A stretch of 17,454 bases of DNA from a virus (lineage: Duplodnaviria; Heunggongvirae; Uroviricota; Caudoviricetes). A program made the position numbers and the translations under genes. Of the stretch, positions 1-15,231 are shown piece after piece. The first letter of the stretch is position 1, and each line of letters starts with the position of its first letter. The stretch lies in IMG/VR virus record IMGVR_UViG_2579778773_000004, positions 1 through 17,454 of that record; one strand, 5' to 3'. The notes under the pieces are model-generated. The model made no database searches, had not been told where the DNA came from, and worked only from the letters and a program-made list of their open reading frames with translations.

Positions 1-148
1 GTTATTACCCGATCTCGATGGAAGTTATTGAGTGATCTCCTTTCATGAAAATACGCATTAATAAACAGTTTCTCAATTATTAGTCAGCATCATCAGAAGA
101 AACCCCTCTCCAAAGATAATTTTATAAAATAATATAAATGTCCACGCC

Positions 149-210
149 TGGCACGGAGTAGACTGGCTATCTAAGCTAAAGGTCTGCTGTGAGCGAAAAC
201 CGGACATGTA
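149..210. repeat. Junction element copy A (core TGGCACGGAGTAGAC at 149-163, plus a GCGAAAAC box at about 193-200)
   Basis: Read directly: TGGCACGGAGTAGAC...GTGAGCGAAAACCGGACA. Aligns by eye at roughly 70% identity over about 55 bp with copy B at 2794-2866 (TGGCACGGAGCGGAC...GTGCGAAAACAGACA). Lies downstream of the 211-aa cargo gene on the - strand. Confidence 0.6.
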
Positions 211-516
211 CATATCTGTCAAAAAAGCAATTTTTAGCTGCCACTTCCAGTGGATGGCGGTCGGTCAGGAGATAATAGAAACAAAACATAATCATTAAAT
301 GACTGAAAAATGAAAATTGTATAAACATTCATCTTAGATGACAATTTCAAATGCATCTCTATAATTTCCCCTAGTTCAAACCAGACAGAATCTAACCACT
401 GCAAGTAGTTTTAAAATCATAGGAAAATAACGTGCATCAGCAGAAGCATATGGAAAATACACAACACATTTCAAAAATACATACTTTTAAAATTTTCATT
501 GACTGATATTTTTAAT

Positions 517-1152
517 TTATTTTCGTAAAAAAATCGACGCCCTATCCGGGTTTACTTTACATAGATGAGAAAGATATAGCGCCCTTCGATTAAATTTGCC
601 TTCAGTAAGGTCATCAATGTTTTTCCTGAATGGGTACTTAATCCGTGCAGCTATGTCAAAGTCACTAATGCTTGCATGAGCTTTGGTAAGTTTAGCTATC
701 CCATAAGTGCCATAGCCAAAGTAGCAACAGGATATATATGCTATGCAGATATCATCTGCTGTTGTTGCTTTCCTGATAAGAATGGCTAATATTTGCTCTC
801 TTATTTTTCTTCGAACTGTTTTCTCATATCTCTTAGTTATTGTTCTAACAAACTGTTGGTCTATAGTACTTGCGCCTTGATGAATGTTTTTAAATAATCT
901 CAGATATATAGTTCTTAAAATAGCAACTGGATCAACTCCCCTGTGTAATAGTTGCCGATGATCCTCAGCCACTCTTAATATATCAATTAAAGATAAAGAT
1001 ATAGATCTTTCACTTATCGAACTAAGCCTTATATAATCAATACATTTATAATAATCTTCCATAATACTTTTAACCCTGAATTTAAAAACCATTTCTGCCA
1101 ATAGCAAGTATGGCAATGACAGTAAGGTAATCAAAAAGCGCTTCGCTGCCAT
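517..1152 (-). CDS. Hypothetical membrane-anchored protein (cargo gene, 211 aa from the internal start MAAKRFLITLL...); second gene of a two-gene operon
   Basis: ORF track gives 517..1188 (223 aa). I prefer the ATG at 1152 because AGGAG sits 7 nt upstream (minus-strand reading CAGGAGACGTGAA-ATG). N-terminal hydrophobic stretch FLITLLSLPYLLLAEMVF suggests a TM helix or signal anchor. A 200+ codon ORF in very AT-rich DNA is unlikely by chance. No family recognised. Confidence 0.55.
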   Translation of the reverse strand: MAAKRFLITLLSLPYLLLAEMVFKFRVKSIMEDYYKCIDYIRLSSISERSISLSLIDILRVAEDHRQLLHRGVDPVAILRTIYLRLFKNIHQGASTIDQQFVRTITKRYEKTVRRKIREQILAILIRKATTADDICIAYISCCYFGYGTYGIAKLTKAHASISDFDIAARIKYPFRKNIDDLTEGKFNRRALYLSHLCKVNPDRASIFLRK

Positions 1153-1679
1153 TTCACGTCTCCTGATGTATCTGCAGCGGTGGACCAAAATTTGCCATGC
1201 ATAGCATCTGCATTCACCTTTTGGAAATACAGCAAAATGGTATAACTCCTTAACTCACCTTCCATTTTTATATTCAATGAGGCATGATTTTTCCTTAAGT
1301 AATTTCTCTTAATCACCCCTCGAACCTCTCCAATACTTCTATGCTTACCAGTGTATGGTCTTATATTATTATTGTTTTCAACGTCTTTTGTTTTCTCAAT
1401 AAACCCTTCAATATTATTGTTGTCACATATTAAAGTCAGTGTATAAAACGTTTTTAAATTCAAGTAAGGATTATACGCAGATTTTAGTGTTTTACATTCA
1501 ACTTCAAAGACGCCCGAAAAATTTGGTGGCGGTTTAATATATTCTTTGAATATAAAAATCAATACAGCCGCAATAAGAGTAGCAACAGCACCACTTAAGA
1601 TTTGATTTGTGGAAATAAAGGTTAGAGATGGCTCAAGCCATTCCCAAAATATGTTGAAAAAATCAGTAAATTTATTCAT
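1131..1679 (-). CDS. Hypothetical single-TM membrane protein (cargo gene, 182 aa); first gene of a two-gene operon
   Basis: ORF track entry. Hydrophobic segment ILSGAVATLIAAVLIFIF (residues about 27-45). Its 3' end overlaps the start of the downstream gene by 22 nt, suggesting translational coupling. Very AT-rich. RBS is weak (AAAGAAA). No family recognised. Confidence 0.5.
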   Translation of the reverse strand: MNKFTDFFNIFWEWLEPSLTFISTNQILSGAVATLIAAVLIFIFKEYIKPPPNFSGVFEVECKTLKSAYNPYLNLKTFYTLTLICDNNNIEGFIEKTKDVENNNNIRPYTGKHRSIGEVRGVIKRNYLRKNHASLNIKMEGELRSYTILLYFQKVNADAMHGKFWSTAADTSGDVKWQRSAF

Positions 1680-2076
1680 AAATTTCTTTTGATAGTATGT
1701 TTTTTATATGATGTTACATTTTTGAGAAAAAAGCAACTTCGCCGATTAAAAACTATCTCGCTGGAATTTATGGGCATCATGTTATGAATACATTCTTATC
1801 CCATAGGGAATAAAACCCTATCTATAGAATAAAAATCCAAATTTTATCTTAATAAATCAGATAAAAGATACTTATACTACAAAGGTACTTGTGTAAGATC
1901 AAACTTTTAATCCTATAAGTTATAGATTGAAGCAACTGTGACTTATAGTGCGCACACTTAAGAATCTCCGATGACGATGGTAGCAGGAGACAACTTTTGA
2001 CAACTCACTCCTATTACCAACTTACTGACTTGCTCCGCGTTGAGAGATTTATAGTTATGCCAGCACTGTCCGCTTC

Positions 2077-2116
2077 TGGCACATTGCGGAAGGGCTAACG
2101 GCCCGGAGTAAGTGAG
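2077..2116. repeat. Junction element copy D (TGGCACATTGCGGAAGG, with flanking inverted repeat TCCGC/GCGGA)
   Basis: Read directly: GTCCGCTTCTGGCACATTGCGGAAGGGCTAACGGCCCGGAGTAAGTGAG. Shares TGGCAC-N3-GCGGA with copies B and C. TCCGC (2069-2073) pairs with GCGGA (2086-2090). Lies downstream of the 171-aa gene. Confidence 0.45.
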
Positions 2117-2180
2117 TAACGGATGTTTGCAAGCACTCTTACTGCTGACAATGATCGCATCCAAGATAAAATAGGTGGTG

Positions 2181-2696
2181 TCAAGGTACAGGTTCACCAA
2201 TATAAGTGTGTGTGCAGCAACGACATGTCACCTTAACGTCATCTCTTGTGATTGAAAGGTTTACCTGTTGCAGAATTCCATTCTCATCAACAAACAGACC
2301 TGGGTAAAAACTGCTTTCACCAATGCAGACTAAATCCCTTCGCTGATGCTCATGTAGCGCGACCAACCAGAATACCGGCTCGGTGGTATCAAGACGTCCA
2401 CATACTTCGCTGAATATTTCATTCCACGGCTTGCCAATCTCTTTGATCAGAAAATAAAACAACGGTGTGTAGTCTCGGCCACGCTTCTGTCTGCTATGCA
2501 TTGTCTCGCGCTTTACCAGTAGCTCATCTCCGACTTTTTTGCGATTTCGTTCCCACCGATACTCAGCACCCGGATTATTAGAATGGTGCCGCGTCGTCGT
2601 GTTGACGCTGCGATATAGTTTACGGGACTTATTCTGCTGATGAATACGCATAGCTCGATCTCGTACATCCTTTCTTTTGTGGGCCAGTAGCCCCAT
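2181..2696 (-). CDS. Hypothetical highly basic protein (171 aa), cargo gene of unknown function
   Basis: ORF track entry. AAGG lies 8 nt upstream of the ATG at 2696. Local GC (near 47% by eye) is higher than the flanking AT-rich cargo. Arg/Lys/His-rich N-terminal half. No motif recognised; could be a nucleic-acid-binding protein or a decayed gene. Confidence 0.4.
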   Translation of the reverse strand: MGLLAHKRKDVRDRAMRIHQQNKSRKLYRSVNTTTRHHSNNPGAEYRWERNRKKVGDELLVKRETMHSRQKRGRDYTPLFYFLIKEIGKPWNEIFSEVCGRLDTTEPVFWLVALHEHQRRDLVCIGESSFYPGLFVDENGILQQVNLSITRDDVKVTCRCCTHTYIGEPVP

Positions 2697-2793
2697 TCAG
2701 ACCTTGTGTTACTGTATAAAAAATGAACACCCTTAAAGGCTGTATCATTCTGCTCAAATACCATCCTACTGACAACTACCAAAGGTCGGATTC

Positions 2794-2866
2794 TGGCACG
2801 GAGCGGACAATCAAGTAGAACTGAAGGCCCGCTATGTGCGAAAACAGACAGACACAGATTGATCAC
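2794..2866. repeat. Junction element copy B (core TGGCACGGAGCGGAC, plus GCGAAAAC box)
   Basis: Read directly. Begins 17 bp downstream of the stop of the HExxH gene (2883). Homologous by eye to copy A. Contains a weak inverted repeat AGCGG...CCGCT. Confidence 0.6.
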
Positions 2867-2882
2867 AAACATACCTGAACCA

Positions 2883-3812
2883 TCAGGATTTTATATCCTT
2901 GTGTGGCTCTAATCCTTCAGAAAGGACTTTATCAAATGCAGCATATTGCCTTTGTAATTTACTTTCACATTCATACAGACTCTTTAAACTAACATCATCC
3001 ATAGATTGAAAGAGTCTTTTGTTATCAACTAAATAGGAGTATGCATTAAAAATAGAAACATCCATTATATCTTTCAGTTCTTCATCAGATAGTTTAGTCT
3101 TTTTACTTAAATGCTTAATCACATGTGACTGCAATGCATTTGCGCGAACCATGGCGGGAGGATATTTGCTATTCTTCCCTTCCAATTTACATAGAAAATT
3201 AAAGAAAAAAAATATTGATGTTAAAGATAAACTAACAAGTGTTTTCTCTTCTATTTTTTTCTCCGGGGCCTTTTTTATTGTATTTAAGACGACATCTGCA
3301 ACAAAGTATGCTGAGAATACATCTGCATCATACTCCATTAATGTTTTAATCTGATCTTCACTAAAATCTTCATCGACTACATTGTACCCCATTGAATAAA
3401 CTTGGTAATCACCAATCAGGTTTATTTCTTTACTTTTGGCTAATGATAAGTGTCCACGAGCGACATGTCCAAGTTCATGACCGAAAATATGGTGCCAAAT
3501 AAAGACACACCCTAACGCAACTGGAGCTTCCTTTTCTTTCAAGTCAGGGTATTCTCTCATGAAGAATTCTATATTTTCAGAAAGAATGTCAAACGTTATT
3601 GGTATCAACCCACTCAATAAAATAATATGGAAATTATTGTCTTTTTTTTGTGCGTGAGCATTAAGGTTAAAATCGTCCTTAATGTGCAGAGCTATTTTTT
3701 TACCATCCTCTTCAATAGCGGAGTTTATCTCTATCAATCCTTTTTTGAAGGTATCGTAAACAGGCAAGAAAAAACCACTTTCTATTTTCGAAATTTCATC
3801 ACGGGTCATCAT
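2883..3812 (-). CDS. Putative HExxH zinc metallopeptidase (309 aa; motif HIFGHELGHVARGH), possibly ImmA/IrrE-like; standalone cargo gene
   Basis: ORF track entry. Tandem ATG ATG start with strong RBS (minus-strand TTAAAGGTGGAAAT-ATGATG). HELGH is a zincin-type HExxH motif in a hydrophobic context. A 309-codon ORF in very AT-rich DNA is unlikely by chance. The family assignment is from motif recall only. Confidence 0.7.
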   Translation of the reverse strand: MMTRDEISKIESGFFLPVYDTFKKGLIEINSAIEEDGKKIALHIKDDFNLNAHAQKKDNNFHIILLSGLIPITFDILSENIEFFMREYPDLKEKEAPVALGCVFIWHHIFGHELGHVARGHLSLAKSKEINLIGDYQVYSMGYNVVDEDFSEDQIKTLMEYDADVFSAYFVADVVLNTIKKAPEKKIEEKTLVSLSLTSIFFFFNFLCKLEGKNSKYPPAMVRANALQSHVIKHLSKKTKLSDEELKDIMDVSIFNAYSYLVDNKRLFQSMDDVSLKSLYECESKLQRQYAAFDKVLSEGLEPHKDIKS

Positions 3813-3869
3813 ATTTCCACCTTTAACATGAAATCTAATTCTAATTGATAGGTCTACTTAGTTTCGCTC

Positions 3870-3898
3870 ATTGTACTATTTTATTAAAGTGGGTTGAA
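3870..3898 (-). promoter_or_regulatory. Candidate sigma70 promoter for the HExxH gene (-35 TTCAAC at 3893-3898, 17-nt spacer, -10 TACAAT at 3870-3875, minus-strand reading)
   Basis: Read directly from the reverse complement of 3841-3935. An AT-rich UP-like stretch (CTATATAAAAATGTAA) lies immediately upstream. Implied 5' UTR is about 50 nt. Confidence 0.3.
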
Positions 3899-3935
3899 GG
3901 TTACATTTTTATATAGCATGTCTACTGTCCCTTTG

Positions 3936-3981
3936 TGGCACAGAGCGGACTGTCAGATTAGTTTTTACTCTGTGCCATAGA
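3936..3981. repeat. Junction element copy C: perfect 10-bp inverted repeat TGGCACAGAG / CTCTGTGCCA around a 22-nt loop; putative end-of-operon hairpin after G
   Basis: Read directly: TGGCACAGAG-CGGACTGTCAGATTAGTTTTTA-CTCTGTGCCA. Shares the core TGGCAC(R)GAGCGGAC with copies A and B. Lies 30 bp downstream of the G stop. No U-tract follows on either strand, so it is not a canonical intrinsic terminator. Confidence 0.55.
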
Positions 3982-4011
3982 TGAGTAATCTCACACCAGA
4001 TCTAATACGAT

Positions 4012-4590
4012 TTATTGTGGCATTTCAGGCCATTCTATATCCGGAGCATCTTCCGGCTGAACGCGATTCAGTAGCACACGGTATTTTTTCCAGTGTGTCA
4101 GACTTAACTTTTCTTCCTCGGTAGCCATATCTAAATCGACAGCATCCTGCAGCGTGGCAATAATTTCACCTGCATATGCAATCAGCTCTTTCTTCTGAGA
4201 GTCAGCCGCTCTGACAAGCGCATCACGCTCTGCATTCTCATCATTCACCCACGCATTTCCGTTCCATTTCTGATAATCCCCATCCGGGGAAATGGCTGTC
4301 ACGTCTGGAGGTAATGCGCCAAGTTCAGAAATATAAATGGCTGCTCCTGTTTTTGTTTCATAGACAGTCTTTCCACGATGGTCTTCCACCAGATCCCATT
4401 TCATTTCATCTGCATTGAAAACGGCGGCAAAACCCACCGGAATATCTGGAGGTGCAATGTCTGTACTGTTTGCAGGAAGACCTGTATGCGGCGGAATATA
4501 TGCGTCACTTTCGCCAATAAATTCATTGGTTCCATCAAGTAAATTGAAAACGCGGATAGTTTGTGTCTCTGCACTCATTCTGAAAGTCAT
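4012..4590 (-). CDS. G: Tail fiber assembly protein (chaperone), gpG-like
   Basis: Position immediately after H with a TAATG stop/start overlap. C-terminus ...[10 protein letters not shown] matches the conserved gpG C-terminus as I recall it. The N-terminal part is variable, as expected for the partner of the fiber tip. Start at 4590 is preferred (GAGG upstream); alternative ATG at 4578. Confidence 0.85.
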
Positions 4591-6365
4591 TATGCCAGCC
4601 TCACAATATAGTTATACGCAACGTTTTTTACGGTGTTCTCTGAATTACCTGTGGCACTTACAGTGACGGTATGACTATGCGCGCCAATCGCAATGGAATG
4701 GCTGTGAGCACCAATGCCAACCGTGTGATTATGCTGACCAATGTCGACTGTATGGGCGTGTGCTCCCGCAGAGCTTGACACCTGGTTGGTTCCTGATACC
4801 TGTACGCGTTGTTTACCCCCGATGGAGTCACCACCGTAACGACCACCGACAGTGTGTGTATGCGCTCCCGTATTGTTTGTCGTTTTTGTGCCGTGGTTAA
4901 ACGTGCTGACCGTTTTTGTCCCGTAATCAAACGAACTGGTTGTTTTCGTCCCTAAATCCGTACTGGATGCACTGGCACTGTGGGTATGTGATTTAATTCC
5001 GTCCTGTTCCTGTGATAATACGGCGCGACCACTGGCGGGTTTGCCCTTGATTGTCCAGCCGCGCATATCTGGAATCACCCCTGACGGATAAGCTACTGCA
5101 AGCAGGGGATAGGCTGCTTTATCAAAAGTCTGCCCCTGCATCAGGGCATAGCCTGTAGGTACTGAATCAGAAGGCCACGGGATTGGAGCACCTACCGGAA
5201 AGTTGTTGTACCCGTCATGATGAATCAACTTCCAGCCTTTAAAAACACCTGCGCAAACTGCCGCAAAACCGATTACATCTCCATTAAAATCAATGCCAAT
5301 AACAGTATTGTATCCCTGAGTATTGCTGTGTGCAGAGTTGATGTAGTGCTTCCAGGTGTGTCCTCCAGGCATTCCATTCTTTGCTGAGGAAGCATTAAAA
5401 AAGCCACCACGCGTACGTAAATCAGTAGCAATATCACTTATATTTTCGGCGTACTCATTTAATCCCGCTCCTTTAGGTACTCGCTTGTTTGCATTGTCAT
5501 TAGCAGCTTTCACTGCTTTCGGAGTCGCGGCAAGCGTTTCAGAATCGCTGTTGGTGGCACTACTTAGCTGGACAAGCCCTTTTCGTGCCGTGGTGGCGTC
5601 CTGTGCGGTGTATTTGCCATTAGCAAGGTCATATGCTGTCTTAACCGCCTTTGGCGTTGCTGCGAGCGTCTCAGATTCGCTGTTGGTGGCACTACTTAGC
5701 TGAACAAGACCTTTTCGCCCCGTGCTGGCGTCCTGAGCGGTATATTTTCCGTTAGCAAGGTCATACGCTGCCTTAACCGCCTTCGGCGTTGCGGCCAGCG
5801 TTTCAGATTCACTATTGGTCGCGCTGCTTAACTGAGTAAAACCTTTTGCAGTCAGTGAGGCGTCCGGATGGCGTCGTGACTGTTCGTGCTCTGCAATTTT
5901 GTCATCAACGTAATCCTGCGTCGCCATCACCGTTGTGGTGTCGATGGTCAGATCCACTGAGGCCACACTGCTGACGATAATGACCATGCGGCAGGTCTGC
6001 GAACGTCCTGAGCCTTCGGCAAGGGCAGGCTTATAACTTTCGGCCATGTTCGCCACGGCAATTAACGCACCGGTATCATCGTACAGACCAAGTTCACGCA
6101 TCCAGAAACCGCCCACCTCCGGCGGGATGACCAGCTCTGCGATAATATAATTACTGTGTCGATTGTCCTGACTGATTTTATTCAGGGCATGTCGCCAGAC
6201 CTCATTAACAAGTTTTGTCTGTCCGGCATCCGGCACCGGCAATTGACCGCCACCGTCCCCGACGGCCATCGTGGTAATGTTGACCTTCCTGCCTCCCGGT
6301 GCAGTCGCCGCTGCCAGCTTTGCTGCACCGGCGGTAGTGATAACGGTTTGGAACTTTACGCTCAT
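4590..6365 (-). CDS. H: Tail fiber protein gpH-like (591 aa); P2-like N-terminal region, divergent His-rich C-terminal receptor-binding region
   Basis: N-terminal [40 protein letters not shown]... matches P2 gpH by recall. Internal tandem repeats [20 protein letters not shown] (phage tail fiber repeat). C-terminal GAHxHTV / HSH repeats. Confidence 0.93.
5496..5843. repeat. Tandem repeats of about 132 bp (2.6 copies) inside H, encoding the tail-fiber repeat G(F/L)[42 protein letters not shown]
   Basis: Visible at both protein level (residues about 175-290) and DNA level (three near-identical blocks between about 5490 and 5845). Confidence 0.85.
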
Positions 6366-6375
6366 TATTCCTCAC

Positions 6376-6906
6376 TTATCCTGGGTAAACCGTAATAACA
6401 TCGCCGTCATAAGCCACACCACCGGCAAACAGATAACCGGGGATGTCCTGGGTAATATTCAGACCAATAAGGTGACGACTTGCAGGTTTGGCATCGGCAA
6501 TCAGCCGTTCCATTTCCAGATACATCTCCTCCGTGATGCCGCTTTCCAGTACGCCGATATCAAGCCGGAAGGTGCCGGGCGGGTCGCTGTTTTCCCACCA
6601 CTCCGTCACGTTGATGAGATAGCCGAGCGGCTCCACCACACGGCGAATCGCACCAATAGTGCCCTTATGGCAGTGAATGAAATACGCATCGCGGATAACG
6701 GCGCGTTTTGTCGCTTCCGGCCACTTTTCATCCCAGCGGTCAACCGAAAATGACCACGCCAGCCACGGCAGCAGATTTGCCGGACAGGTGTCCGGGTTCC
6801 ACAGCTCACGAATACTGACCGGCGTTTTTTCAATTTCCGCACAGGCTTTTGCGGCGGCAACTTCAAGCGGTGATGAGCCTGTCGGCAGCAGTCGCGAATC
6901 ATTCAT
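6376..6906 (-). CDS. I: Baseplate protein gpI-like (176 aa)
   Basis: Length and position (between J and H) match P2 gpI. Overlaps the J stop by 8 nt. Confidence 0.9.
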   Translation of the reverse strand: MNDSRLLPTGSSPLEVAAAKACAEIEKTPVSIRELWNPDTCPANLLPWLAWSFSVDRWDEKWPEATKRAVIRDAYFIHCHKGTIGAIRRVVEPLGYLINVTEWWENSDPPGTFRLDIGVLESGITEEMYLEMERLIADAKPASRHLIGLNITQDIPGYLFAGGVAYDGDVITVYPG

Positions 6907-7807
6907 CCGAGCCTCCGGTCACGACGCTGTATTCGGTACAGAAAGACGCCTGCGTACTGTTGAGCACGATGTCGGCCAGTGGTGCAGCCAGTTCGACACG
7001 CTGCACGCCTTCCACATGCAAAGCGGCATAAATGGCAGACAGACGGATGTCGCGCCCCAGCCGGTGCTGTGCCGTGATATACGCTTCCAGTTCTTTCACG
7101 GCGGCCGCGCGAATGGGTTCTCTTTCAGGACCAGGGTAAAGGTAAAGCGTGGCGTTTATCTGGTATTCAACGATGGCAGCAGACTGCACGTTCACACGAT
7201 CGGCCACCGGTCTGACGTCCTCGCCATTAAGGGCGTTACGCACCACAGCCAGCAGGTCTTCGGATGCGACACCGTTATTTTCACGTGACAGCACAGAGAT
7301 GGTGACACAGGCCGGAGACGGACTGGTGACAGAGATATCCGCGACACGCCCGTCGGCACTGCGACCATGATACTGATAGGCGCCCACCGACCCGGCGACG
7401 CTTAAACCTTCAAACGCCTGCTGAATACGCAGACGATAATCCGTGTCAGATTCCATCACTGCCGGTGTCGGCGGGATGGTCGAATCATCTGCCGGGGTGA
7501 TAATCAGGCGCGCGGTGTTGTAATTGGCACCAATCACATCAAGGTCATTACCAGCGGCACAGGCCAGCATCACCGCCCGTGCGGCCTCATTCACACGCTG
7601 ACGCCAGATAAGCTCACGATAAGCATTTTCCTCCAGCAGTTTGACGAGAGGCTCGGATTCCAGCGTCAGGGTACGGGCAACCGCCTCCTGCTGGTCTTCC
7701 GGGTAAAGGGAAATCAGTGTCGCCTTGCGTTCGGCAAGAATGGTTTCAAAGTCCAGCTCCTCGACCACATCCGGTGCGGGTAGCTGGTTCAGGTCGATAA
7801 TCGGCAT
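6899..7807 (-). CDS. J: Baseplate wedge protein gpJ-like (302 aa)
   Basis: Length (302 aa) and synteny W-J-I match P2 gpJ. Sequence MPIIDLNQLPAPDVVEELDFETIL... recognised as gpJ-like. Confidence 0.93.
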   Translation of the reverse strand: MPIIDLNQLPAPDVVEELDFETILAERKATLISLYPEDQQEAVARTLTLESEPLVKLLEENAYRELIWRQRVNEAARAVMLACAAGNDLDVIGANYNTARLIITPADDSTIPPTPAVMESDTDYRLRIQQAFEGLSVAGSVGAYQYHGRSADGRVADISVTSPSPACVTISVLSRENNGVASEDLLAVVRNALNGEDVRPVADRVNVQSAAIVEYQINATLYLYPGPEREPIRAAAVKELEAYITAQHRLGRDIRLSAIYAALHVEGVQRVELAAPLADIVLNSTQASFCTEYSVVTGGSDE

Positions 7808-7811
7808 GGTT

Positions 7812-8159
7812 TCAACTCACAGGGATGGTTAACGAAAGTTGCTGGCCGGTGTCGTTGTGCTGGCCGTTTAACGTAACTGTCATTCGCCCGTCAAAACTGC
7901 GCTCAGTGGTGACGGATGACAGGGTGACGCGGGGTTCCCATTTCAGCACCGCCATGTAACAGGCGACCTTAATCTGCAACTCAAGCGCCGGGGTCTGCGG
8001 CTGGTCAATCATTGACGCCAGCAACGAGCCGTAATCACGACGCATCACCCGTGAGCCGACCGGTGTGCGCAGGATATCGCCGATACTCTGGCTGATATGC
8101 TCAAGGTCAGTGACAGTCAGGCCATCACTGCAATTCATTCCGAGATAACGCGCTGTCAT
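7812..8159 (-). CDS. W: Baseplate wedge protein gpW-like (115 aa, gp25-like)
   Basis: Length (115 aa) and synteny V-W-J match P2 gpW. Start overlaps the V stop. Confidence 0.93.
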   Translation of the reverse strand: MTARYLGMNCSDGLTVTDLEHISQSIGDILRTPVGSRVMRRDYGSLLASMIDQPQTPALELQIKVACYMAVLKWEPRVTLSSVTTERSFDGRMTVTLNGQHNDTGQQLSLTIPVS

Positions 8160-8791
8160 AGAGGACTCCCGGTTGTGCCGCCGCTGTCGCCGGGGTGTTT
8201 ATGGGTATGCAGCACCTTACCGTTTGATGAGAGTTCACCACCGGTGTGTTCAATGTTGCCGCGCATCGTCCCACCCTTCTGCACTTCCAGCGTGCCGGTA
8301 GTCAGTTTGTTAGTGCAGACCACCTCCGGTGTGTCCAGGGTGACGCGGGTTGATGCTTTCACCATGACCACCGGCACCGTGGCAGTAACAGAATCAGAAG
8401 CCGTCACGCTGGCCGTTTTAATTCCGCTTACCGTGAGTGCACTGGTTTCGGGTTCATACTCAATCACCGCCCCGTCAGGGAAACGGATATGCAGGGCATC
8501 CGCCGACGCAGACGGCGCGGGGTTATCGCCGGAATAAATCCCCGGCAGAACGAACGCCGTGTCGAGTTCACCGCCCACAGCCAGAATCAGCACCTGTTCC
8601 CCCACGGAAGGTGCCCACCATGTGCGCGAACGTCCGGCACGATGGGTCAGCCACTGAAGCCAGTCGGTGCACATGCCGCCGGTCTGCACACGGCAGCGAC
8701 CGGCGTTAAGGTCGGTTTCGACGATAATGCCGGTGCGGATCATGTTGCGCAGTGCGCGCGCGAGTTCCTGAATATTTGCGAGAGTGTTCAT
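8156..8791 (-). CDS. V: Baseplate spike / assembly protein gpV-like (211 aa)
   Basis: Length (211 aa) and synteny match P2 gpV. A 66-bp gap from S contains a GC-rich hairpin; this is the expected site of the V late promoter. Confidence 0.93.
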   Translation of the reverse strand: MNTLANIQELARALRNMIRTGIIVETDLNAGRCRVQTGGMCTDWLQWLTHRAGRSRTWWAPSVGEQVLILAVGGELDTAFVLPGIYSGDNPAPSASADALHIRFPDGAVIEYEPETSALTVSGIKTASVTASDSVTATVPVVMVKASTRVTLDTPEVVCTNKLTTGTLEVQKGGTMRGNIEHTGGELSSNGKVLHTHKHPGDSGGTTGSPL

Positions 8792-8803
8792 AACGGGAAG
8801 GAT

Positions 8804-8826
8804 GCCGCCGGGTCATACCGGCGGCA
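8804..8826 (-). other. GC-rich hairpin (GCCGCCGG-N7-CCGGCGGC) in the S-V intergenic gap; possible terminator or attenuator between late operons
   Basis: Perfect 8-bp inverted repeat read directly at 8804-8811 and 8819-8826. Not followed by a clean U-tract. Confidence 0.3.
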
Positions 8827-8857
8827 ATGTGACGATGAGGTGTCAGGAATGGCACAA

Positions 8858-9310
8858 CTAACGGTCGAGGTGAGCCAGAATAATCTCTTCAATCATCTGC
8901 ACATCCTCACCGGTAAAGCCGAGCAGAGGACGCGCCGGATAATCAATTTTCTTACCGTCTTTCCGGGTTTCTTCCGACAGACCGAACTGATGCACGCTGG
9001 CGATTTTCGGTGACTTCCCGCCGTAAAACTCCATTGATGCCTGTTCCGGGCTGGCGTGGATATGCAAAAAACGACTGGTGATAAGTTTCGCAAACATTTT
9101 TCGCTTAACACGACCAGTCTTTTTTCTGGCGCTCTGCTGCTGGCGTGGCGCGTAGGGTGTGCCGTCCGGGGCTTTCTGAGCCATCACCCGACGCTGCTGA
9201 CTCTGCCGCAGACGCTTCGCCAGCTCTGCACTCAGCCGCCGACGCCCTGACGGTGACAGCGACTCAATAAGTCCGGTCAGCCGGTCTTCAAAACGCTTAA
9301 ACTCATTCAT
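8858..9310 (-). CDS. S: Tail completion protein gpS-like (150 aa)
   Basis: Length (150 aa) and synteny R-S-V match P2 gpS. Start overlaps the R stop. Confidence 0.93.
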   Translation of the reverse strand: MNEFKRFEDRLTGLIESLSPSGRRRLSAELAKRLRQSQQRRVMAQKAPDGTPYAPRQQQSARKKTGRVKRKMFAKLITSRFLHIHASPEQASMEFYGGKSPKIASVHQFGLSEETRKDGKKIDYPARPLLGFTGEDVQMIEEIILAHLDR

Positions 9311-9770
9311 CCCACTTGCTCACCAGTTCGCCATTGATATAAAGCTCCATCGGGCGGGTGACCGGCTCCGGCGGCGTGGGTTCCGGGATATTCTTCACAT
9401 GCAGCGCGCCGTCCACCTCACTGACCAGCGTGCGCTCGGTCAGCATCAGGCTGATGCTGATATCAAAGCTGCTGTCATTGTTGATGTCTGCATAAAACGT
9501 GAAGCCCTTTTTCTGGCCTTCGTCGGTGGTCATGATGTCGGGCTGATTTTCCCGCAGCCACGCCAGCACCGGCACGATGAGCAGGTCAAAATCACCGGTA
9601 AAGTCGGTCACAATGACATTGAGCGTGTAACGCTTTTCGAATGACAACGACGCCGCCAGTGTGGAGGCAATACTCCCGTTATCCACGAATATCCGCAGCA
9701 TATCGGGGTTAGTTTTCAGCACCGTGACGGCATCAGTCAGCGCCCTGCGCAGGCTGTCGGGTTTGAGCAT
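9303..9770 (-). CDS. R: Tail completion protein gpR-like (155 aa)
   Basis: Length (155 aa) and synteny lysB-R-S match P2 gpR. Confidence 0.93.
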   Translation of the reverse strand: MLKPDSLRRALTDAVTVLKTNPDMLRIFVDNGSIASTLAASLSFEKRYTLNVIVTDFTGDFDLLIVPVLAWLRENQPDIMTTDEGQKKGFTFYADINNDSSFDISISLMLTERTLVSEVDGALHVKNIPEPTPPEPVTRPMELYINGELVSKWDE

Positions 9771-10023
9771 CGTTTTCGTCCTGACAGTGTTTAATCATTT
9801 TTACCTGGCTGGCACAACGTGCCAGCGCGTTCTCGAGCTGCCGGATATCGGCACTTAAATCGCCGTTCGTCTCCGGGTCACTGCCCGGCATCGGGCAAAG
9901 GCTCACTTTCGGGCAGGCGTTGGCGACAATCACTGGCGTCGGTGCAGGCGGGGCGCTGGTGCAACCGGCGCACAGCATCAGGCAGGTCAGCACCGTACCA
10001 GCGGCGAAAATCTTCGTTTTCAT
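9733..10023 (-). CDS. lysC: LysC, Rz1-like outer-membrane lipoprotein spanin (96 aa), nested out-of-frame in the 3' part of lysB and extending into the 5' end of R
   Basis: Internal start MKTKIFAAGTVLTCLMLCAGCTSAPPAPTP... at 10023 (ATG read at 10021-10023 on the minus strand). Lipobox LCAGC followed by a Pro-rich region. The track ORF (135 aa) is an upstream extension; 96 aa matches P2 lysC. Confidence 0.8.
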   Translation of the reverse strand: MKTKIFAAGTVLTCLMLCAGCTSAPPAPTPVIVANACPKVSLCPMPGSDPETNGDLSADIRQLENALARCASQVKMIKHCQDENDAQTRQPAQGAD

Positions 10024-10303
10024 TAAGTAACCTCGTGATGGTTTTCTCGCGCTGTGCTTCACGCTTCGCGGCGTTCTCCAGTTCCTGACGCAGTGCCACC
10101 TGCGCCAACTCGTTTTTGTCTGCCCTGGTGAGGGCAGCATGAAGCTGATTTTTCAGCATGATGATGGTCGTCTGCTGTTCACTGGCGACGTTGTTCACCC
10201 TGTCCAGCGAGGCGCGCAGGCTGGCGTTTTCATGCTTCGCCAGAAACAGTCCCGCCACCGCCAGCGATAACAACACAACCAGCACAATCATCAGCTTTGA
10301 CAT
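9878..10303 (-). CDS. lysB: LysB, Rz-like inner-membrane spanin (141 aa)
   Basis: N-terminal TM MSKLMIVLVVLLSLAVAGLFLA followed by a charged, coiled-coil-like region. Length and position match P2 lysB. Confidence 0.9.
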   Translation of the reverse strand: MSKLMIVLVVLLSLAVAGLFLAKHENASLRASLDRVNNVASEQQTTIIMLKNQLHAALTRADKNELAQVALRQELENAAKREAQREKTITRLLNENEDFRRWYGADLPDAVRRLHQRPACTDASDCRQRLPESEPLPDAGQ

Positions 10304-10716
10304 GGTTCCCGCCCCTCAAGACGCTGACGGCAGGCCGTGCGTATCAGCCGGAAAAACAGCGACGCCACGAGATAAATCAGCGCAGTAAAAATCCACCCGG
10401 TGGCAACCAGCGAGATAAACGTCGCCACCATCACTACCAGAGCCGCCGCCCGTCTGCACCACGGCACCGGCTGCAAAAACAGCGACGTGACAATCTTCAC
10501 GGCCAGCGATTCCGGTGGCAACTCCCGCCCGTAGCGTTCCAGCACATACTCCGTGGCATACACGCCAACACCACCGGCAACCACACAGATAACCGTCACC
10601 AGAATCGCCCAGGCAGCGACAAAATTGACGGCCACGCTCTGCGGGTAAATCAGGGACAGTGCCAGCATCAGCGCCAGCGACACATTCAGCATCAGTGAAA
10701 GGGATAATTTCTTCAT
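10291..10716 (-). CDS. lysA: LysA, multi-TM lysis-timing protein (141 aa)
   Basis: Several hydrophobic segments. Length and position after K match P2 lysA. Confidence 0.88.
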   Translation of the reverse strand: MKKLSLSLMLNVSLALMLALSLIYPQSVAVNFVAAWAILVTVICVVAGGVGVYATEYVLERYGRELPPESLAVKIVTSLFLQPVPWCRRAAALVVMVATFISLVATGWIFTALIYLVASLFFRLIRTACRQRLEGREPCQS

Positions 10717-10730
10717 GGTGTTTACTCCGT

Positions 10731-11228
10731 TTAAGCCAGTACGCCGCCAGCGGTACGCCAGACGGTGACCAGTTTTTCCAGTGAATGCTCACGCTGACCG
10801 TAACCGGCACCCGGCAGGGACGCCCAGATATTTCGACAGCGTGAAATGGCGCGCTCAATACGTCCCGCCCGGATGTCATCCAGCGCACCGCGTTCGCGGA
10901 TCAACTGAATGGCGAGTCTGTCCTGTGACAGCGGACTGAAATCCGGCAGGGCAAGCTGTTTGCGGTAATGCGGCCAGAACAGGTAAAGCTGCTGATAGCG
11001 ACCGGAGGCCGTGGATTTTTCACCGCGACGGTTAAACACCTTCGCCGGTCGGCCATGTGCGAACGGGTGGTCACTGTAGTCGGTGAAGATTTCCGGCTTC
11101 CCGTCCAGTCCGGTGACTATCACGTCATAGCCACGGTTTTTCGTCAGCGGATGATTCGCCGTCCCTTCGGACACCGCCAGCATGTCGAGAAAGGCGGCGA
11201 TATTCTGGTGCGTGTTAATTACCGGCAT
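10731..11228 (-). CDS. K: Endolysin gpK-like (165 aa)
   Basis: Length (165 aa) and position after the holin match P2 gpK. Sequence MPVINTHQNIAAFLDMLAVSEGT... recognised as the P2-type endolysin. Confidence 0.93.
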   Translation of the reverse strand: MPVINTHQNIAAFLDMLAVSEGTANHPLTKNRGYDVIVTGLDGKPEIFTDYSDHPFAHGRPAKVFNRRGEKSTASGRYQQLYLFWPHYRKQLALPDFSPLSQDRLAIQLIRERGALDDIRAGRIERAISRCRNIWASLPGAGYGQREHSLEKLVTVWRTAGGVLA

Positions 11229-11509
11229 TACGGTTTCCCCCTGCCCTTAAAGCGGCGCTGAATGGCAATCTCAATCACCTGATAACCGGCGATACCCAGC
11301 ATGGAGCCGATGCCGCACACCGCAGGCAGTGACAGGTCAGGAAACTGCACCAGAACAACACCGGCAACCATCGAGACAAAACCACCGAGCAACATGCGCC
11401 CGATAAACAGACGCGGGGTGATGGGTTCACCACCGGCAAGCACCTTGCCGACAACAATCAGCACCCCAATCATGAAAAGCGACAGGACGCTTTTTTCTTC
11501 TGCTGTCAT
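11228..11509 (-). CDS. Y: Holin gpY-like (93 aa)
   Basis: Small protein with hydrophobic TM segments and a basic C-terminus (RRFKGRGKP). Length and position match P2 gpY. Confidence 0.92.
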   Translation of the reverse strand: MTAEEKSVLSLFMIGVLIVVGKVLAGGEPITPRLFIGRMLLGGFVSMVAGVVLVQFPDLSLPAVCGIGSMLGIAGYQVIEIAIQRRFKGRGKP

Positions 11510-13071: not shown

Positions 13072-14145
13072 TTACGCTCCCGGCTCTGCGGTCGCTTTAG
13101 CCGGTGTGGAGAAGTCACCGACCTTGATTTTTTCCACCAGACAACCGGCGGCGTAGTCTTCCACCACGTAATCAATGTTCATTGACTCGTAGTTCTCCAC
13201 GCGGTCGAGTTTCGGGTTTTCCTCAATCACGCGGCGATGGCTGTCATCCATGTAGTAGATGGACAGGTTTTCCAGCTTCGTGATGAGCATCGCATCCGCC
13301 GGGAAGTACGGGACGCGTACCGCTGGCAGGTTGCCGATGCGTTTCTGGCTGATGATGACGTCAGCGGCCAGCATTTCGCTGTTGTCCTGCTCCTTGTTGA
13401 CGATGGGAAAATACTTGTCCGCCAGTAGCTGACGTCCCACAATCACCACAAGGTCAGGTTCTTCCTGATACCACGGCTCAATCAGGTTGTTGGTCGCATC
13501 CATCACCAGTGCATCAAGGCTGGCATAATCACCGCCCTTACCCACGCGGATGACCTCAGAGGTGGTGCGGCCTTCCTCGTCAGTGACCTTGCTCATCACG
13601 CGCGCCGGGGCTTCATTGCGGTATTTCTGCAGCCAGCCGACCGCCACATCCTGCAGCATCGGATTACTGTTGCGGTCAGAGGTTTCGGCACGCTTCACGC
13701 CGTTAAAACCGGCCATGATGAAATCAAGGGACTGGCGTTTGATAATGGCGTTACGGATACGGAGCTGGAAATCCTGATAACGCGCCCACAGGTCCAGCGT
13801 TTTGTAGCGGATATAAAAATCGAAGTTAACCTGGTCGCATTCGTACTTGTTTGACGCCAGCTTCGAGAAGTCCTTCGGCTGACGCTCGGTGCCACCGGCG
13901 GTGTCGGTGGTGCTGGCAATGGGGCCGGTGACACCGATACCAATTTTTTCCCCTTTCATTTCGCTGACCGGCACAATGTTGATGCGGGTCAGAAAGTCAG
14001 AGGACTCCTGCATGGTGTTCATCAGGGTCTGGGTGACCGACGGTTCAACGGTGAATTTTTTCGACACATCACCGGCGTCGATGCCGTTCAGTTCGGCAAC
14101 ACGGGACAGGTAGGCATTAAATTTAAAACGGGTTTCCTGGCGCAT
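13072..14145 (-). CDS. N: Major capsid protein gpN-like (357 aa)
   Basis: Length (357 aa) and synteny O-N-M match P2 gpN. RBS AGGAAC lies 5 nt upstream of the ATG. Confidence 0.96.
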   Translation of the reverse strand: MRQETRFKFNAYLSRVAELNGIDAGDVSKKFTVEPSVTQTLMNTMQESSDFLTRINIVPVSEMKGEKIGIGVTGPIASTTDTAGGTERQPKDFSKLASNKYECDQVNFDFYIRYKTLDLWARYQDFQLRIRNAIIKRQSLDFIMAGFNGVKRAETSDRNSNPMLQDVAVGWLQKYRNEAPARVMSKVTDEEGRTTSEVIRVGKGGDYASLDALVMDATNNLIEPWYQEEPDLVVIVGRQLLADKYFPIVNKEQDNSEMLAADVIISQKRIGNLPAVRVPYFPADAMLITKLENLSIYYMDDSHRRVIEENPKLDRVENYESMNIDYVVEDYAAGCLVEKIKVGDFSTPAKATAEPGA

Positions 14146-15058: not shown

Positions 15059-15231
15059 TGTCAGGAGTCCTGAATAGTGATTAGAGGAGTCACATGTCGG
15101 CATCAGTTTCCCGACGATGCGCATCCTCTGCCATCAGTCCCGGATGGCTTATCACTGACACAACAGCACCTTAGCGAATCGCGGGGCGCGACTCAGTAGC
15201 CTTGCCGTGTATTCATCACGGCGAGGTATTC
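15059..15231. promoter_or_regulatory. Divergent late-promoter region between O (-) and P (+); expected site of Ogr-dependent late promoters
   Basis: Established P2 biology: the P-Q and O-to-S operons diverge from this intergenic region under Ogr-activated promoters with a TGT-N12-ACA element near -55. Partial dyads seen: TGG-N12-ACA at 15145-15162 and GTCGG-N10-CCGAC at 15096-15115. No exact TGT-N12-ACA found by eye. Confidence 0.5.

Follow-up and report, generated by a model that had tools for sequence, protein, structure and literature searches.

The locus considered here raises the question of what the AT-rich sequence beside the tail genes of a P2-like Escherichia coli prophage is, how it is built and what its genes may do. 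The window analysed was the whole 17,454-nt stretch of IMG/VR virus record IMGVR_UViG_2579778773_000004. Its GC content was 0.30-0.35 at 1-2000 and 3000-4000, 0.43-0.46 at 2000-3000 and 0.53-0.64 from about 5500 on. The initial annotation of an AT-rich foreign island agreed with this profile: the island spans 57-3950 (GC 30-35%, against 55-60% in the P2-like backbone), and the intermediate values (about 45% at 2000-2800) belong to one cassette, at about 2062-2809. The island begins about 60 nt past the stop of the tail-fibre assembly gene G, the conserved upstream flank (92-94% nucleotide identity to G of Peduovirus P24A7b and Salmonella phage STYP1), and the backbone from G to terminase is intact. 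The P2-like sequence, said earlier to end at the G stop, continues about 85 nt further, to about 3927, and this stretch contains a conserved hairpin and a palindromic unit (B), both also present in P2. The features of the window are given in Table 1.

Table 1. Features in and beside the island (window coordinates; minus is the late-gene strand, on which all four cargo ORFs lie)
Feature	Position	Strand	Evidence or remark
Terminal 56 nt of ISEc12 (IS21-family)	1-56		100% matches to multicopy sequence
Remaining part of the region upstream of the following cassette (in CE0011b, ORF259)	57-139	minus	cut by the IS
Junction 4: A4 (182-205), 18-nt spacer, B4 (140-163)	140-205	minus	
GT51 monofunctional peptidoglycan glycosyltransferase-like protein, 211 aa	517-1152	minus	Pfam Transgly 1.8e-22, 80 bits (cut-off 27)
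ORF182, N-terminal transmembrane (TM) helix and beta-rich domain, 182 aa	1131-1679	minus	KD19 maximum 2.38, residues 26-44
Unit B3, boundary of ORF171 and TM+GT51 cassettes	2068-2091	minus	
ORF171, small basic protein, 156-171 aa	2181-2651/2696	minus	
Junction 2: A2 (2827-2849), spacer, B2 (2785-2808)	2785-2849	minus	A2 degenerate, one base shorter
ORF309, soluble zinc metallopeptidase, gluzincin / M48-like type, 309 aa	2883-3812	minus	invariant HELGH..RGH and MEYDAD motifs
Outer left boundary: unit B1 (3927-3950) and upstream inverted partner TGGCACAGAG (3968-3977)	3927-3985	minus	
Gene G, P2 tail fibre assembly protein	4012-4590	minus	Pfam Caudo_TAP 3.4e-40
Gene H	4590-6365	minus	

FI is absent from the window. 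The prophage of E. coli CE0011b is 99.97% identical over 57-10700 and carries, beyond the window edge, one more 259-aa cargo gene followed by FI, FII, E, E' and T. Because this near-identical prophage has one extra cargo gene and then FI, the locus is very probably the G-FI (Z/fun) hotspot for accessory genes in a P2-like E. coli prophage. A cassette-array architecture is likewise very probable. In P2 itself the G-FI interval is occupied by fun(Z), as the initial annotation had stated. Empty P2-like sites have the layout G-TAA, 4 nt, terminator hairpin AGGCGGGCTGATTGCCCGCC with a T run, and pF, and occupied sites have the same terminator distal to a second palindromic unit (A). Comparison with the empty phages shows the whole array to have been inserted downstream of the G stop codon and ahead of the V-operon terminator, after which comes the FI late promoter. 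This puts the cargo at the 3' end of the V-W-J-I-H-G late transcription unit, with which it shares its strand. The placement of all cargo on the late-gene strand was confirmed for the four real ORFs; the ORFs at 1958-2200 and 2513-2872 are probably no genes and overlap junction repeats or other genes.

At the left edge, window 1-56 was matched at 100% in 1,703 of 5,426 E. coli genomes (median 3 copies per genome), and in strain M217 the match sits 137 nt from istA of ISEc12. Homology of CE0011b and of strain NB4833 to the window begins exactly at 57, and 1-56 is an ISEc12 end outside the island proper. The sequence at 57-139 is continuous with locus L001 from 6001, where the 259-aa gene WP_029396804 comes next, and 57-206 shows 97% identity to the sequence upstream of ORF259 in strain EC11. 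In terms of the CE0011b array, the element breaks the island upstream of the ORF259 cassette. At the left edge the island is therefore broken by ISEc12 and does not simply run off the window, as the initial annotation had it; further cargo (ORF259) follows in CE0011b. The window holds three cassettes, and the fourth lies beyond the insertion; the CE0011b array, with all four, measures about 5.1 kb.

Palindromic units of 24 nt flank each cassette, B upstream (GTCCGCTCYGTGCCAGAAGCGGAC) and the related A downstream (GTCCGCTCCTCGCTCAAAGCAGAC); by inspection, both seem to have a 6-bp centre, different in A and B, flanked by 9-bp inverted arms. At internal junctions A is followed after about 18 nt by B. 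In seven sequences (the window and six loci) 16 A-like and 29 B-like matches were found, compared with 0.1-0.15 expected in shuffles, and the window alone gave 6 unit matches against 0.94 expected. The outer left boundary (3927-3985) forms the G-proximal arm of an imperfect inverted repeat of about 90 nt that brackets the hotspot, is kept in P2 (L004, 300-359) and in other occupied P2-like phages, and folds as RNA with z = -3.7. Junction 2 forms a long A:B hairpin (RNA fold -25.2 kcal/mol, z = -4.1); only 2 of the 6 junctions fold better than shuffles. Junction 4 departs from the consensus by 4 mismatches in A4 and 5 in B4 and recurs in L001, L002 and L006, and the A3 partner upstream of B3 (about 2101-2133) is degenerate and uncertain.

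Where the same cassettes occur in other mobile elements, homology stops inside the A/B units. The breakpoints of NB4833, which carries the whole island in a non-P2 context, fall inside B1 at 3950 relative to the window and in A5 relative to CE0011b, and the shared ORF171 cassette spans exactly 2062-2809, from B2 to B3. Each cassette was found alone elsewhere. The ORF171 cassette was present in 85 E. coli genomes, with the rest of the island absent in 83 of them (one such locus is an integrase island adjoining ychF-pth). The TM+GT51 pair was located in a lambdoid prophage, where it lies between Q and holin and adjoins iss, and in Enterobacter and other chromosomal islets, and ORF259, off the window, adjoins a P4-type integrase beside an e14-like prophage. 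The proposal of at least three independent modules accordingly holds, the ORF171 cassette, the pair and ORF259 each lying in separate contexts. Conserved positions of the same genes in non-prophage chromosomal contexts had been named as evidence against the annotation, and this was seen in part: NB4833 has the whole island in its non-P2 context, and Serratia ORF171 homologues occupy a fixed, non-mobile-looking chromosomal position. These contexts show cassette sharing and give no sign of a locus other than G-FI.

A survey of 66 P2-like viral contigs that carry G as well as FI showed variable content between conserved flanks, in line with what the initial annotation expected of this comparison. 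Empty sites (11 of 66) measured 128-356 nt from the G stop to the FI ATG, 8 of the 11 at 128-132 nt, and occupied sites (55 of 66) had intervals of 1.1-4.4 kb, so that no sampled interval reached the length of the CE0011b array. Among the 55, unit B lay 50-65 nt after the G stop in 38 and unit A about 216 nt before the FI ATG in 38; both, in a B...A layout, were seen in 34, and B-A-B-A in 5. At the thresholds used, 17 had no detectable B near the G stop, 17 had no detectable A near the FI ATG, and 13 had neither unit anywhere in the interval. None of the 66 contigs carried the cargo of the window, nor did any of the 80 P2-like viral contigs sampled.

The locus agrees with the P2 hotspot in its flanks, with G upstream and, as the sister prophage shows, FI downstream. 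It also has AT-rich foreign cargo, inserted at the same place with respect to the V-operon terminator and pF, and the outer units B and A found in P2 itself (P2 15335-15358 and 17432-17455). It differs in that the cargo is unrelated to fun(Z), that the array is longer, with internal A-B junctions making the cassettes explicit, and that P2 fun lies on the opposite strand whereas all cargo here is on the late strand. The hotspot of phage P2 was reportedly described by Calendar in 1998, and Nilsson et al. are said to have described it in 2004 with inverted repeats around fun, which they reportedly took for site-specific recombination sites. It has been re-surveyed with iLund4u (bioRxiv 10.1101/2024.10.15.618418) and by Moura de Sousa et al. 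2026 (PMC13586616), and both report defence and other cargo. The cargo described here is new, in an already known hotspot.

The A/B units may be crossover points for cassette swapping, which would proceed either site-specifically, through the inverted arms and centre, or by short-homology recombination. It is a real possibility, if short of probable, that they are instead extragenic palindromes of a REP/BIME-like type, acting as mRNA 3' ends or as terminator/insulator elements and spreading as repeats, with exchange incidental via RecA, Red or RecET and no dedicated recombinase or site. A genome scan with the B pattern (20 specified bases) gave at least 120 loci, most in Alphaproteobacteria among the matches listed, where several per genome (Pseudolabrys, Xanthobacteraceae, Methyloceanibacter) show the same two-hairpin layout, usually directly 3' of paralogous ABC substrate-binding genes. 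The units resemble REP/BIME (REPIN-like) elements in this multicopy state, in having two short palindromic units and a short spacer, and in being strictly intergenic. No recombinase is encoded in or adjoining the P2 hotspot, and the exchange mechanism has been called unknown, with homology-based routes considered (PMC13586616). Against the REP/BIME-like reading, a 24-nt stretch containing mismatches offers little length for RecA-dependent exchange, the units keep remarkably constant places (B at +62 relative to the G stop, A at -216 relative to the FI ATG) and a constant A-B spacing (about 42 nt start to start), the arm-centre-arm geometry is that of a tyrosine-recombinase core site, and the repeats were reportedly read as recombination sites in 2004. 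Enterobacterales A/B units mark accessory-cassette boundaries, whereas REP is dispersed through core operons, and to our knowledge the units are unrelated in sequence to the E. coli REP consensus. The arrays also recall those of integron attC sites in their mostly single-gene, same-strand cassettes, in imperfect palindromes of about 60-70 nt with pairable halves, and in the recurrence of identical cassettes in different arrays. They differ from them in having no IntI integrase or attI nearby and no R''/R' GTTRRRY boxes, in a gene orientation that varies among other arrays (P2 fun; Phytobacter L145), and in being scattered over prophages, integrase islands and chromosomal islets.

In fold and in its distant relatives, ORF309 points to gluzincins of the M48/M13 type. 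It is similar to Lit (peptidase U49), the abortive-infection protease of prophage e14, in being a prophage-borne, soluble protein of about 300 aa with a central HExxH in a single-gene module, and in E. coli K-12 e14 an A-like unit lies 8 nt past the lit stop. The two differ in sequence, with no detectable relationship (hhalign probability 1.5%) and no PADLOC Lit match for ORF309. ORF171, whose start is placed at 2651 by RefSeq and most homologues (156-160 aa), combines an N-terminus that is basic and disordered with a folded C-terminal domain in which a C.CC motif is conserved, and matches no known fold. ORF182, with homologues in 21 clusters (all Enterobacterales where the source names the organism), received no function from Pfam, PHROG or PADLOC. 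The GT51 protein also matches NCBIfam PBP1A, PBP1b and MGT models, and alignment to PBP1a 5u2g shows intact catalytic motifs (ED..H.G.DP, GASTI.QQ, RK.RE). It shares with MtgA and the class A PBP GT51 domain an N-terminal anchor (hydrophobic segment, residues 6-24), motifs 1-3 including both catalytic Glu, and an MGT-like size; unlike these it has diverged strongly (about 30 bits against solved MGTs), is mobile prophage cargo, and is always coupled to its TM/beta-rich partner. The two genes overlap by 22 nt, with the same overlap and GT51 follower in 9 of 9 loci, and are, judging by sequence, a translationally coupled pair.

The cargo proteins are conserved and real. Two IS elements in the island lineage (ISEc12 at window 57 and IS2 in G of CE0011b) would suit a reading of the island as decaying junk, pseudogenised remnants in a defective prophage. 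This is highly improbable and effectively refuted: the four ORFs are full length, with 40-95% amino-acid identity across genera and invariant catalytic motifs, the overlap of the pair is conserved, and the backbone is intact.

PADLOC was run on the cargo proteins, as had been proposed, and none matched any defence model, while the Lit positive control was found at 8.5e-124. The anti-phage role implied by the initial annotation thus gained no direct support, and such a role, judged from location, is tentative. P2's own occupant, fun(Z), blocks T5, Lit is a precedent for a single soluble HExxH protease on a prophage, and in the ychF island L003 the ORF171 cassette has large AAA-ATPase and DEAD/DEAH-helicase genes nearby, possible defence candidates. 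About 16% of P2-encoded defence systems lie at the tail-gene hotspot, described as downstream of GpL (PMC13586616). These points stand against the view, possible though somewhat doubtful, that the cargo is not anti-phage and consists of lysogenic-conversion or envelope-fitness genes (the GT51 pair, for example, remodelling peptidoglycan for stress, bacteriocin or antibiotic tolerance) or of selfish passengers without host benefit. Consistent with that view are the PADLOC result, the classic 'moron' position of the pair in the lambdoid prophage, its Enterobacter islets beside housekeeping operons, the Salmonella ORF171 homologues, placed within arrays of small hypothetical genes that recall islands of orphan immunity or toxin genes, and the term 'mixed purpose' given to the hotspot (bioRxiv 10.1101/2024.10.15.618418).

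The overall reading, a G-FI hotspot holding a cassette array whose cargo would serve conflict or lysogenic-conversion functions, is considered likely. The cargo would act in the lysogen. Its expression may come from late-operon read-through and from the AT-rich region upstream of each cassette; a sigma-70 promoter scan was at chance (16 found, 16 expected) and so does not show independent promoters. ORF309, as a cytoplasmic M48-like zinc protease with a Lit-like logic, would cleave a host or phage protein upon infection, and the inner-membrane TM/beta-rich and GT51 pair may act at the envelope, in superinfection exclusion or membrane-targeted abortive infection.

Annotation of the window showed a P2-like prophage whose late genes lie on the minus strand. 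Genes for capsid, lysis, baseplate and tail fibres extend leftward as far as H and G, and a cargo island started about 60-85 nt past the G stop. The prophage of E. coli CE0011b is the same (99.97% identity over window 57-10700), and there the GT51 gene was followed by a 259-aa hypothetical gene (WP_029396804, here ORF259) and then by FI, FII, E, E' and T, with the terminator, the pF region and FI coming after this one additional cassette. The initial annotation had placed the island at the G-FI interval, and with the G flank in the window and the FI flank in CE0011b this placement was borne out. The locus is the P2-type Z/fun (G-FI) hotspot, which in P2 contains fun(Z), the V-operon terminator and the pF activator site; it is a known hotspot with new cargo within it. 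The hotspot is textbook P2 biology, and its confirmation alone contributes little.

FI lies outside the view of the window because ISEc12 begins at 56/57. The island begins just past G, as had been proposed, but window 1-56, which had been counted with it, is the end of this insertion sequence; the 1-56 sequence was present in 1,703 of 5,426 complete E. coli genomes (median three copies), and the full island in just 2 of the 5,426. The CE0011b copy of the prophage is probably defective because an IS2 lies within the 3' end of G (L001, the CE0011b locus, 10010-11339; equivalent to window 4060-4065) and H is annotated as fragments, while H and G are intact in the window. In the H protein of the window, a segment of ~45 aa occurs three times in tandem, and the C-terminus has a His-rich repeat region with HTH/HSH motifs. 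A sub-threshold Rfam match to IS009 (52.9 bits vs gathering 117, E = 2.3e-10) lay within the G coding region, at window 4049-4247 on the minus strand.

Features of the window and consensus of the cassette boundary units
Feature	Position (window)	Strand or orientation	Remark
Large terminase subunit	15202-17004	plus	
H (tail fibre)	4590-6365	minus (late strand)	
G (tail fibre assembly)	4012-4590	late strand	Caudo_TAP 3.4e-40
ORF309	2883-3812	late strand	
ORF171	2181-2696	late strand	RefSeq and most homologues: start at 2651
ORF182	1131-1679	late strand	
GT51 protein, 211 aa	517-1152	late strand	
ISEc12 (IS21 family) end	1-56		inserted at 56/57, just upstream of the place where ORF259 starts in CE0011b
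Unit B		gene orientation	GTCCGCTCCGTGCCAGAAGCGGAC
Unit A		gene orientation	GTCCGCTCCTCGCTCAAAGCAGAC

The GC content of the backbone was 0.53-0.64. The description of the region left of G as very AT-rich held for 1-2000 and 3000-4000 (0.30-0.35) but not for 2000-3000, which was intermediate (0.43-0.46). All credible ORFs left of G were on the late-gene strand, as first described; the ORFs at 1958-2200 and 2513-2872 had no support as genes and overlapped junction repeats or other genes.

For the variability of the slot, 80 P2-like viral contigs were fetched with the FI protein, and both G and FI were located in 66. Variable content between conserved flanks, which had been expected across P2-like prophages, was seen in this comparison: 11 of the 66 sites were empty, eight with 128-132 nt from the G stop to the FI ATG and three with 164, 279 and 356 nt, and 55 were occupied, with G-FI intervals of 1.1-4.4 kb. 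The cargo of the window was absent from all 66 contigs, and its array (~5.1 kb in CE0011b coordinates, IS2 excluded) was larger than any in the sample. The empty sites read as G-TAA, 4 nt, a terminator hairpin (AGGCGGGCTGATTGCCCGCC) with a T run, and then pF. In the occupied sites, the same terminator was retained at the FI-proximal end; therefore, the point of insertion of the cargo is after the G stop and before the V-operon terminator. Cargo on the same strand should be reached by late transcription from pV.

Searches on the cargo proteins showed that ORF309, a candidate M48-like gluzincin with an HExxH motif, belongs to a small family (15 clusters among 5.8 billion proteins; where a source is named, it is Enterobacterales or Vibrio) with the invariant residues H112-E113-x-x-H116, R119-G120-H121 and M159-E160-x-D162-A163-D164. 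Searching 1.84 billion representatives with a profile gave 109 relatives of 300-450 aa, and 3 of 10 distant relatives were above the Pfam Peptidase_M48 cut-off. ORF309 itself showed neither a clear signal peptide nor a clear transmembrane segment. Its identification as Lit (peptidase U49) was rejected, as hhalign of its profile (A1) against K-12 Lit gave a probability of 1.5% and there was no Pfam or PADLOC Lit match. ORF171 had 88 clusters across Enterobacterales and no match in Pfam, PHROG, NCBIfam or PADLOC.

In ORF182, a single strong transmembrane helix at the N-terminus is combined with a beta-rich domain, and the GT51 gene follows ORF182 with an identical 22-nt overlap in 9 of 9 loci examined. 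One ORF182 homologue (P0109) is named SMODS-associating 2TM beta-strand-rich effector (S-2TMbeta) in UniRef; Pfam did not reproduce this name, as scanning 17 members of the family at E <= 1 gave no such match. The GT51 protein scored 80 bits for Pfam Transgly (cut-off 27), and its motif 1 (AEDHRQLLHRGVDP, for EDxxFxxHxG), motif 2 (GASTIDQQ, for GxSTITQQ) and motif 3 (RKIRE, for RKxxE) aligned to PBP1a 5u2g. With motifs 1-3 and both catalytic glutamates kept, it is predicted to be an intact peptidoglycan glycosyltransferase. Searches of PADLOC and of the open-access literature gave no GT51 protein strictly coupled to a membrane partner among reported phage-borne defence or conversion functions. 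The N-terminus of ORF259 (L001 5108-5887) reads C-I-Y-C-G ... T-R-E-H-I-L-P ... C-F-H-C-N-N, which is HNH-like by eye (CxxC...EH...CxxCN); no Pfam, PADLOC or PDB sequence match bore out an HNH nuclease.

Neither ORF259 nor any of the cargo ORFs matched a PADLOC-DB v2 model at E <= 0.1, and the positive control Lit was matched at 8.5e-124. The anti-phage case comes from location alone: the P2 occupant fun blocks T5, and ~16% of P2 defence systems are located at this hotspot within the tail genes (PMC13586616). An anti-phage role of the cargo is a tentative reading with rather less than an even chance, and non-defence conversion functions carry a similar weight. As a best guess, ORF309 would be a triggered cytoplasmic protease with a Lit-like logic, and the ORF182-GT51 membrane pair would act on the envelope by superinfection exclusion or by membrane- or lipid-II-directed abortive infection. 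A scan for sigma-70 promoters was at chance level. The island offers three or four compact, conserved, uncharacterised prophage cargo modules as candidates for phage-challenge screens.

A repeat search of the window gave a 23-24-nt motif at 2068-2090, 2785-2807 and 3927-3949, and a fuzzy search added a copy at 140-163. Comparison with related loci resolved these into two related palindromic units, B upstream and A downstream of a cassette, numbered from G towards FI. In seven sequences (the window and six loci), 29 B-like and 16 A-like matches were found at <=6 mismatches, with 0.15 and 0.1 expected from shuffles. The layout was G - B1 - ORF309 - A2/B2 - ORF171 - (A3)/B3 - ORF182+GT51 - A4/B4 - [ORF259 - A5 - terminator - pF - FI], that is, three cassettes in the window, matching the initial count of at least three cargo modules. 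The internal junctions consist of A, a variable spacer of ~18 nt and B; A2 is degenerate and shorter by one base, and A3 is doubtful. A 310-nt AT-rich stretch without annotated gene (window 206-516) separates the GT51 stop from A4; this stretch includes a 56-aa ORF with a hydrophobic segment (234-404, minus strand) and is not kept where the ORF182-GT51 pair occurs in Enterobacter or in a lambdoid prophage.

P2 itself has B just past G (P2 15335-15358) and A just ahead of pF (17432-17455). Among the 55 occupied P2-like sites, B lay 50-65 nt past the G stop in 38 and A lay ~216 nt ahead of the FI ATG in 38; both positioned units were present in 34, and B-A-B-A in 5. The outer sequences flanking B1 and A5 are mutually inverted (AATCTGACA-B ... 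A-TGTCAGATT), and these arms extend to an imperfect inverted repeat of ~90 nt in the window/CE0011b and in P2. The outer arm (TCTGAC...GCTC.GTG) bears a possible resemblance to the Tn3 inverted repeat; the internal junctions lack this arm. Flanking of the Z/fun cargo by inverted repeats is attributed to earlier work (Nilsson 2004, as cited in PMC8987985). The outer repeats are probably already known, and the structure of the internal A-B junctions could be either known or new.

Where homology between P2 prophages, integrase islands and chromosomal islets broke off, the breakpoints coincided with the units. The complete island (57-3950 plus ORF259) recurs in E. coli NB4833 within a different array, not of P2 type, which adjoins a DUF2254 and BCCT gene pair and HTH genes; the homology of this copy stops inside B1 against the window and inside A5 against CE0011b. 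Over exactly 2062-2809 (B2 to B3), the ORF171 cassette was shared at ~96% identity by 83 further E. coli genomes; the one examined has an island adjoining ychF-pth, with a P4-type integrase at its head and more A-B junctions between adjacent genes. ORF259 with an A-B junction adjoined another P4-type integrase, beside an e14-like prophage. In Enterobacter (L100-L103, 5220-7163), the ORF182-GT51 pair is immediately preceded by an ORF171 homologue (87% amino-acid identity), in the order of the window, and B-like and A-like units flank the pair, beside the paa operon. The ORF171 and ORF182-GT51 cassettes may travel or work together, though each was found alone too.

Further units were observed in NB4833 and in E. 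coli K-12. In the NB4833 array (L002 4986-13567), the DUF2254 and BCCT-transporter pair is itself placed between B-like units at 9871-9894 and 13544-13567. In E. coli K-12 e14, the lit stop is followed after 8 nt by an A-like unit (L105 4597-4620; GTCCGCCGCTCGCTTAAAGTGGAC, 5 mismatches), which lies between lit and intE; thus, the classical e14 Abi protease gene bears the same boundary element.

By inspection, each unit can be read as inverted arms of 9-10 bp around a centre of 6-8 bp, and the centres differ (GTGCCA in B, TCGCTC in A). The arm-centre-arm geometry is shared with tyrosine-recombinase core sites, and A and B as dedicated recombination sites is a rather doubtful reading. No recombinase was found in the P2 hotspot, and no integrase between G and FI. 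Integrons differ in that their IntI-type integrase and attI are absent here, with none between G and FI; the integrases beside related arrays are P4-type phage integrases, and the attC R''/R' boxes (RYYYAAC/GTTRRRY) are absent from both units by inspection. Two promoter assignments were rejected: for the repeat as the Ogr/delta activator site of a P2 late promoter, the annotated pF activator of P2 (17555-17583) has a different sequence and lies ~100 nt downstream of A, and for a sigma-54 promoter (TGGCAC, opposite strand) the spacing to any GC element was wrong by inspection. No Rfam family matched the junction elements, just 2 of 6 junctions folded more stably than shuffles, and stem covariation was scored by a noisy regex-based count. 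A literature search for the unit motif strings gave nothing relevant.

A scan of the unit B pattern GTCCGCTNNGTGCCANNAGCGGAC against 185,579 species-representative genomes gave at least 120 loci. Among the matches listed, most were in Alphaproteobacteria, several per genome, with a two-unit layout (ATGTCCGCTTTACCCCCGAAAGCGGACAT - ~20 nt - ATGTCCGCTAAGTGCCAATAGCGGACAT) often just 3' of paralogous ABC substrate-binding genes. This multicopy, two-unit behaviour 3' of paralogous genes is like that of REP/BIME elements, and the A and B units are likewise paired and extragenic, the multicopy feature being seen in the Alphaproteobacterial genomes. That A and B are REP-like elements supplying short homology is accordingly a real possibility, a little short of an even chance. 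Among the scan loci L106-L225, the multicopy element of Xanthobacteraceae, Pseudolabrys and Methyloceanibacter has a unit A', a ~20-nt spacer and a unit B with the GTGCCA centre, and the proteins of the ABC paralogues that it often follows terminate ...ADEVIE. The matches listed in Pantoea, Phytobacter, Klebsiella, Citrobacter, Leclercia, Mixta and Shimwellia were A-B composites 0.7-3.6 kb apart, enclosing one to three ORFs in either orientation. When the 120 scan loci listed were searched by tblastn for the cargo, G, FI and P4-type integrases, nothing was found; therefore, those B sites are not P2 hotspots.

An unlikely but more far-reaching reading is that A and B are heterospecific recombination sites of an unrecognised cassette-exchange system, integron-like or a 'natural RMCE'. 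The two sites would then have the same inverted arms of ~9-10 bp around different centres of 6-8 bp, and the system would move single-gene conflict cassettes among the P2 Z/fun slot, P4-type-integrase islands, e14 and chromosomal islets, Enterobacterales-wide. Given how abundant the two-unit layout is in Alphaproteobacteria, the element family behind such an exchange system would be ancient.

Of the by-products of this analysis, the cassette-boundary element holds the most interest. Recent surveys give the mechanism by which defence genes are exchanged at such hotspots as unknown (PMC13586616, PMC9122126), and a searchable boundary motif makes the question testable by computation and at the bench. 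If such an exchange system exists, it would be the missing mechanism for the rapid swapping of defence genes at P2 and P4 hotspots.
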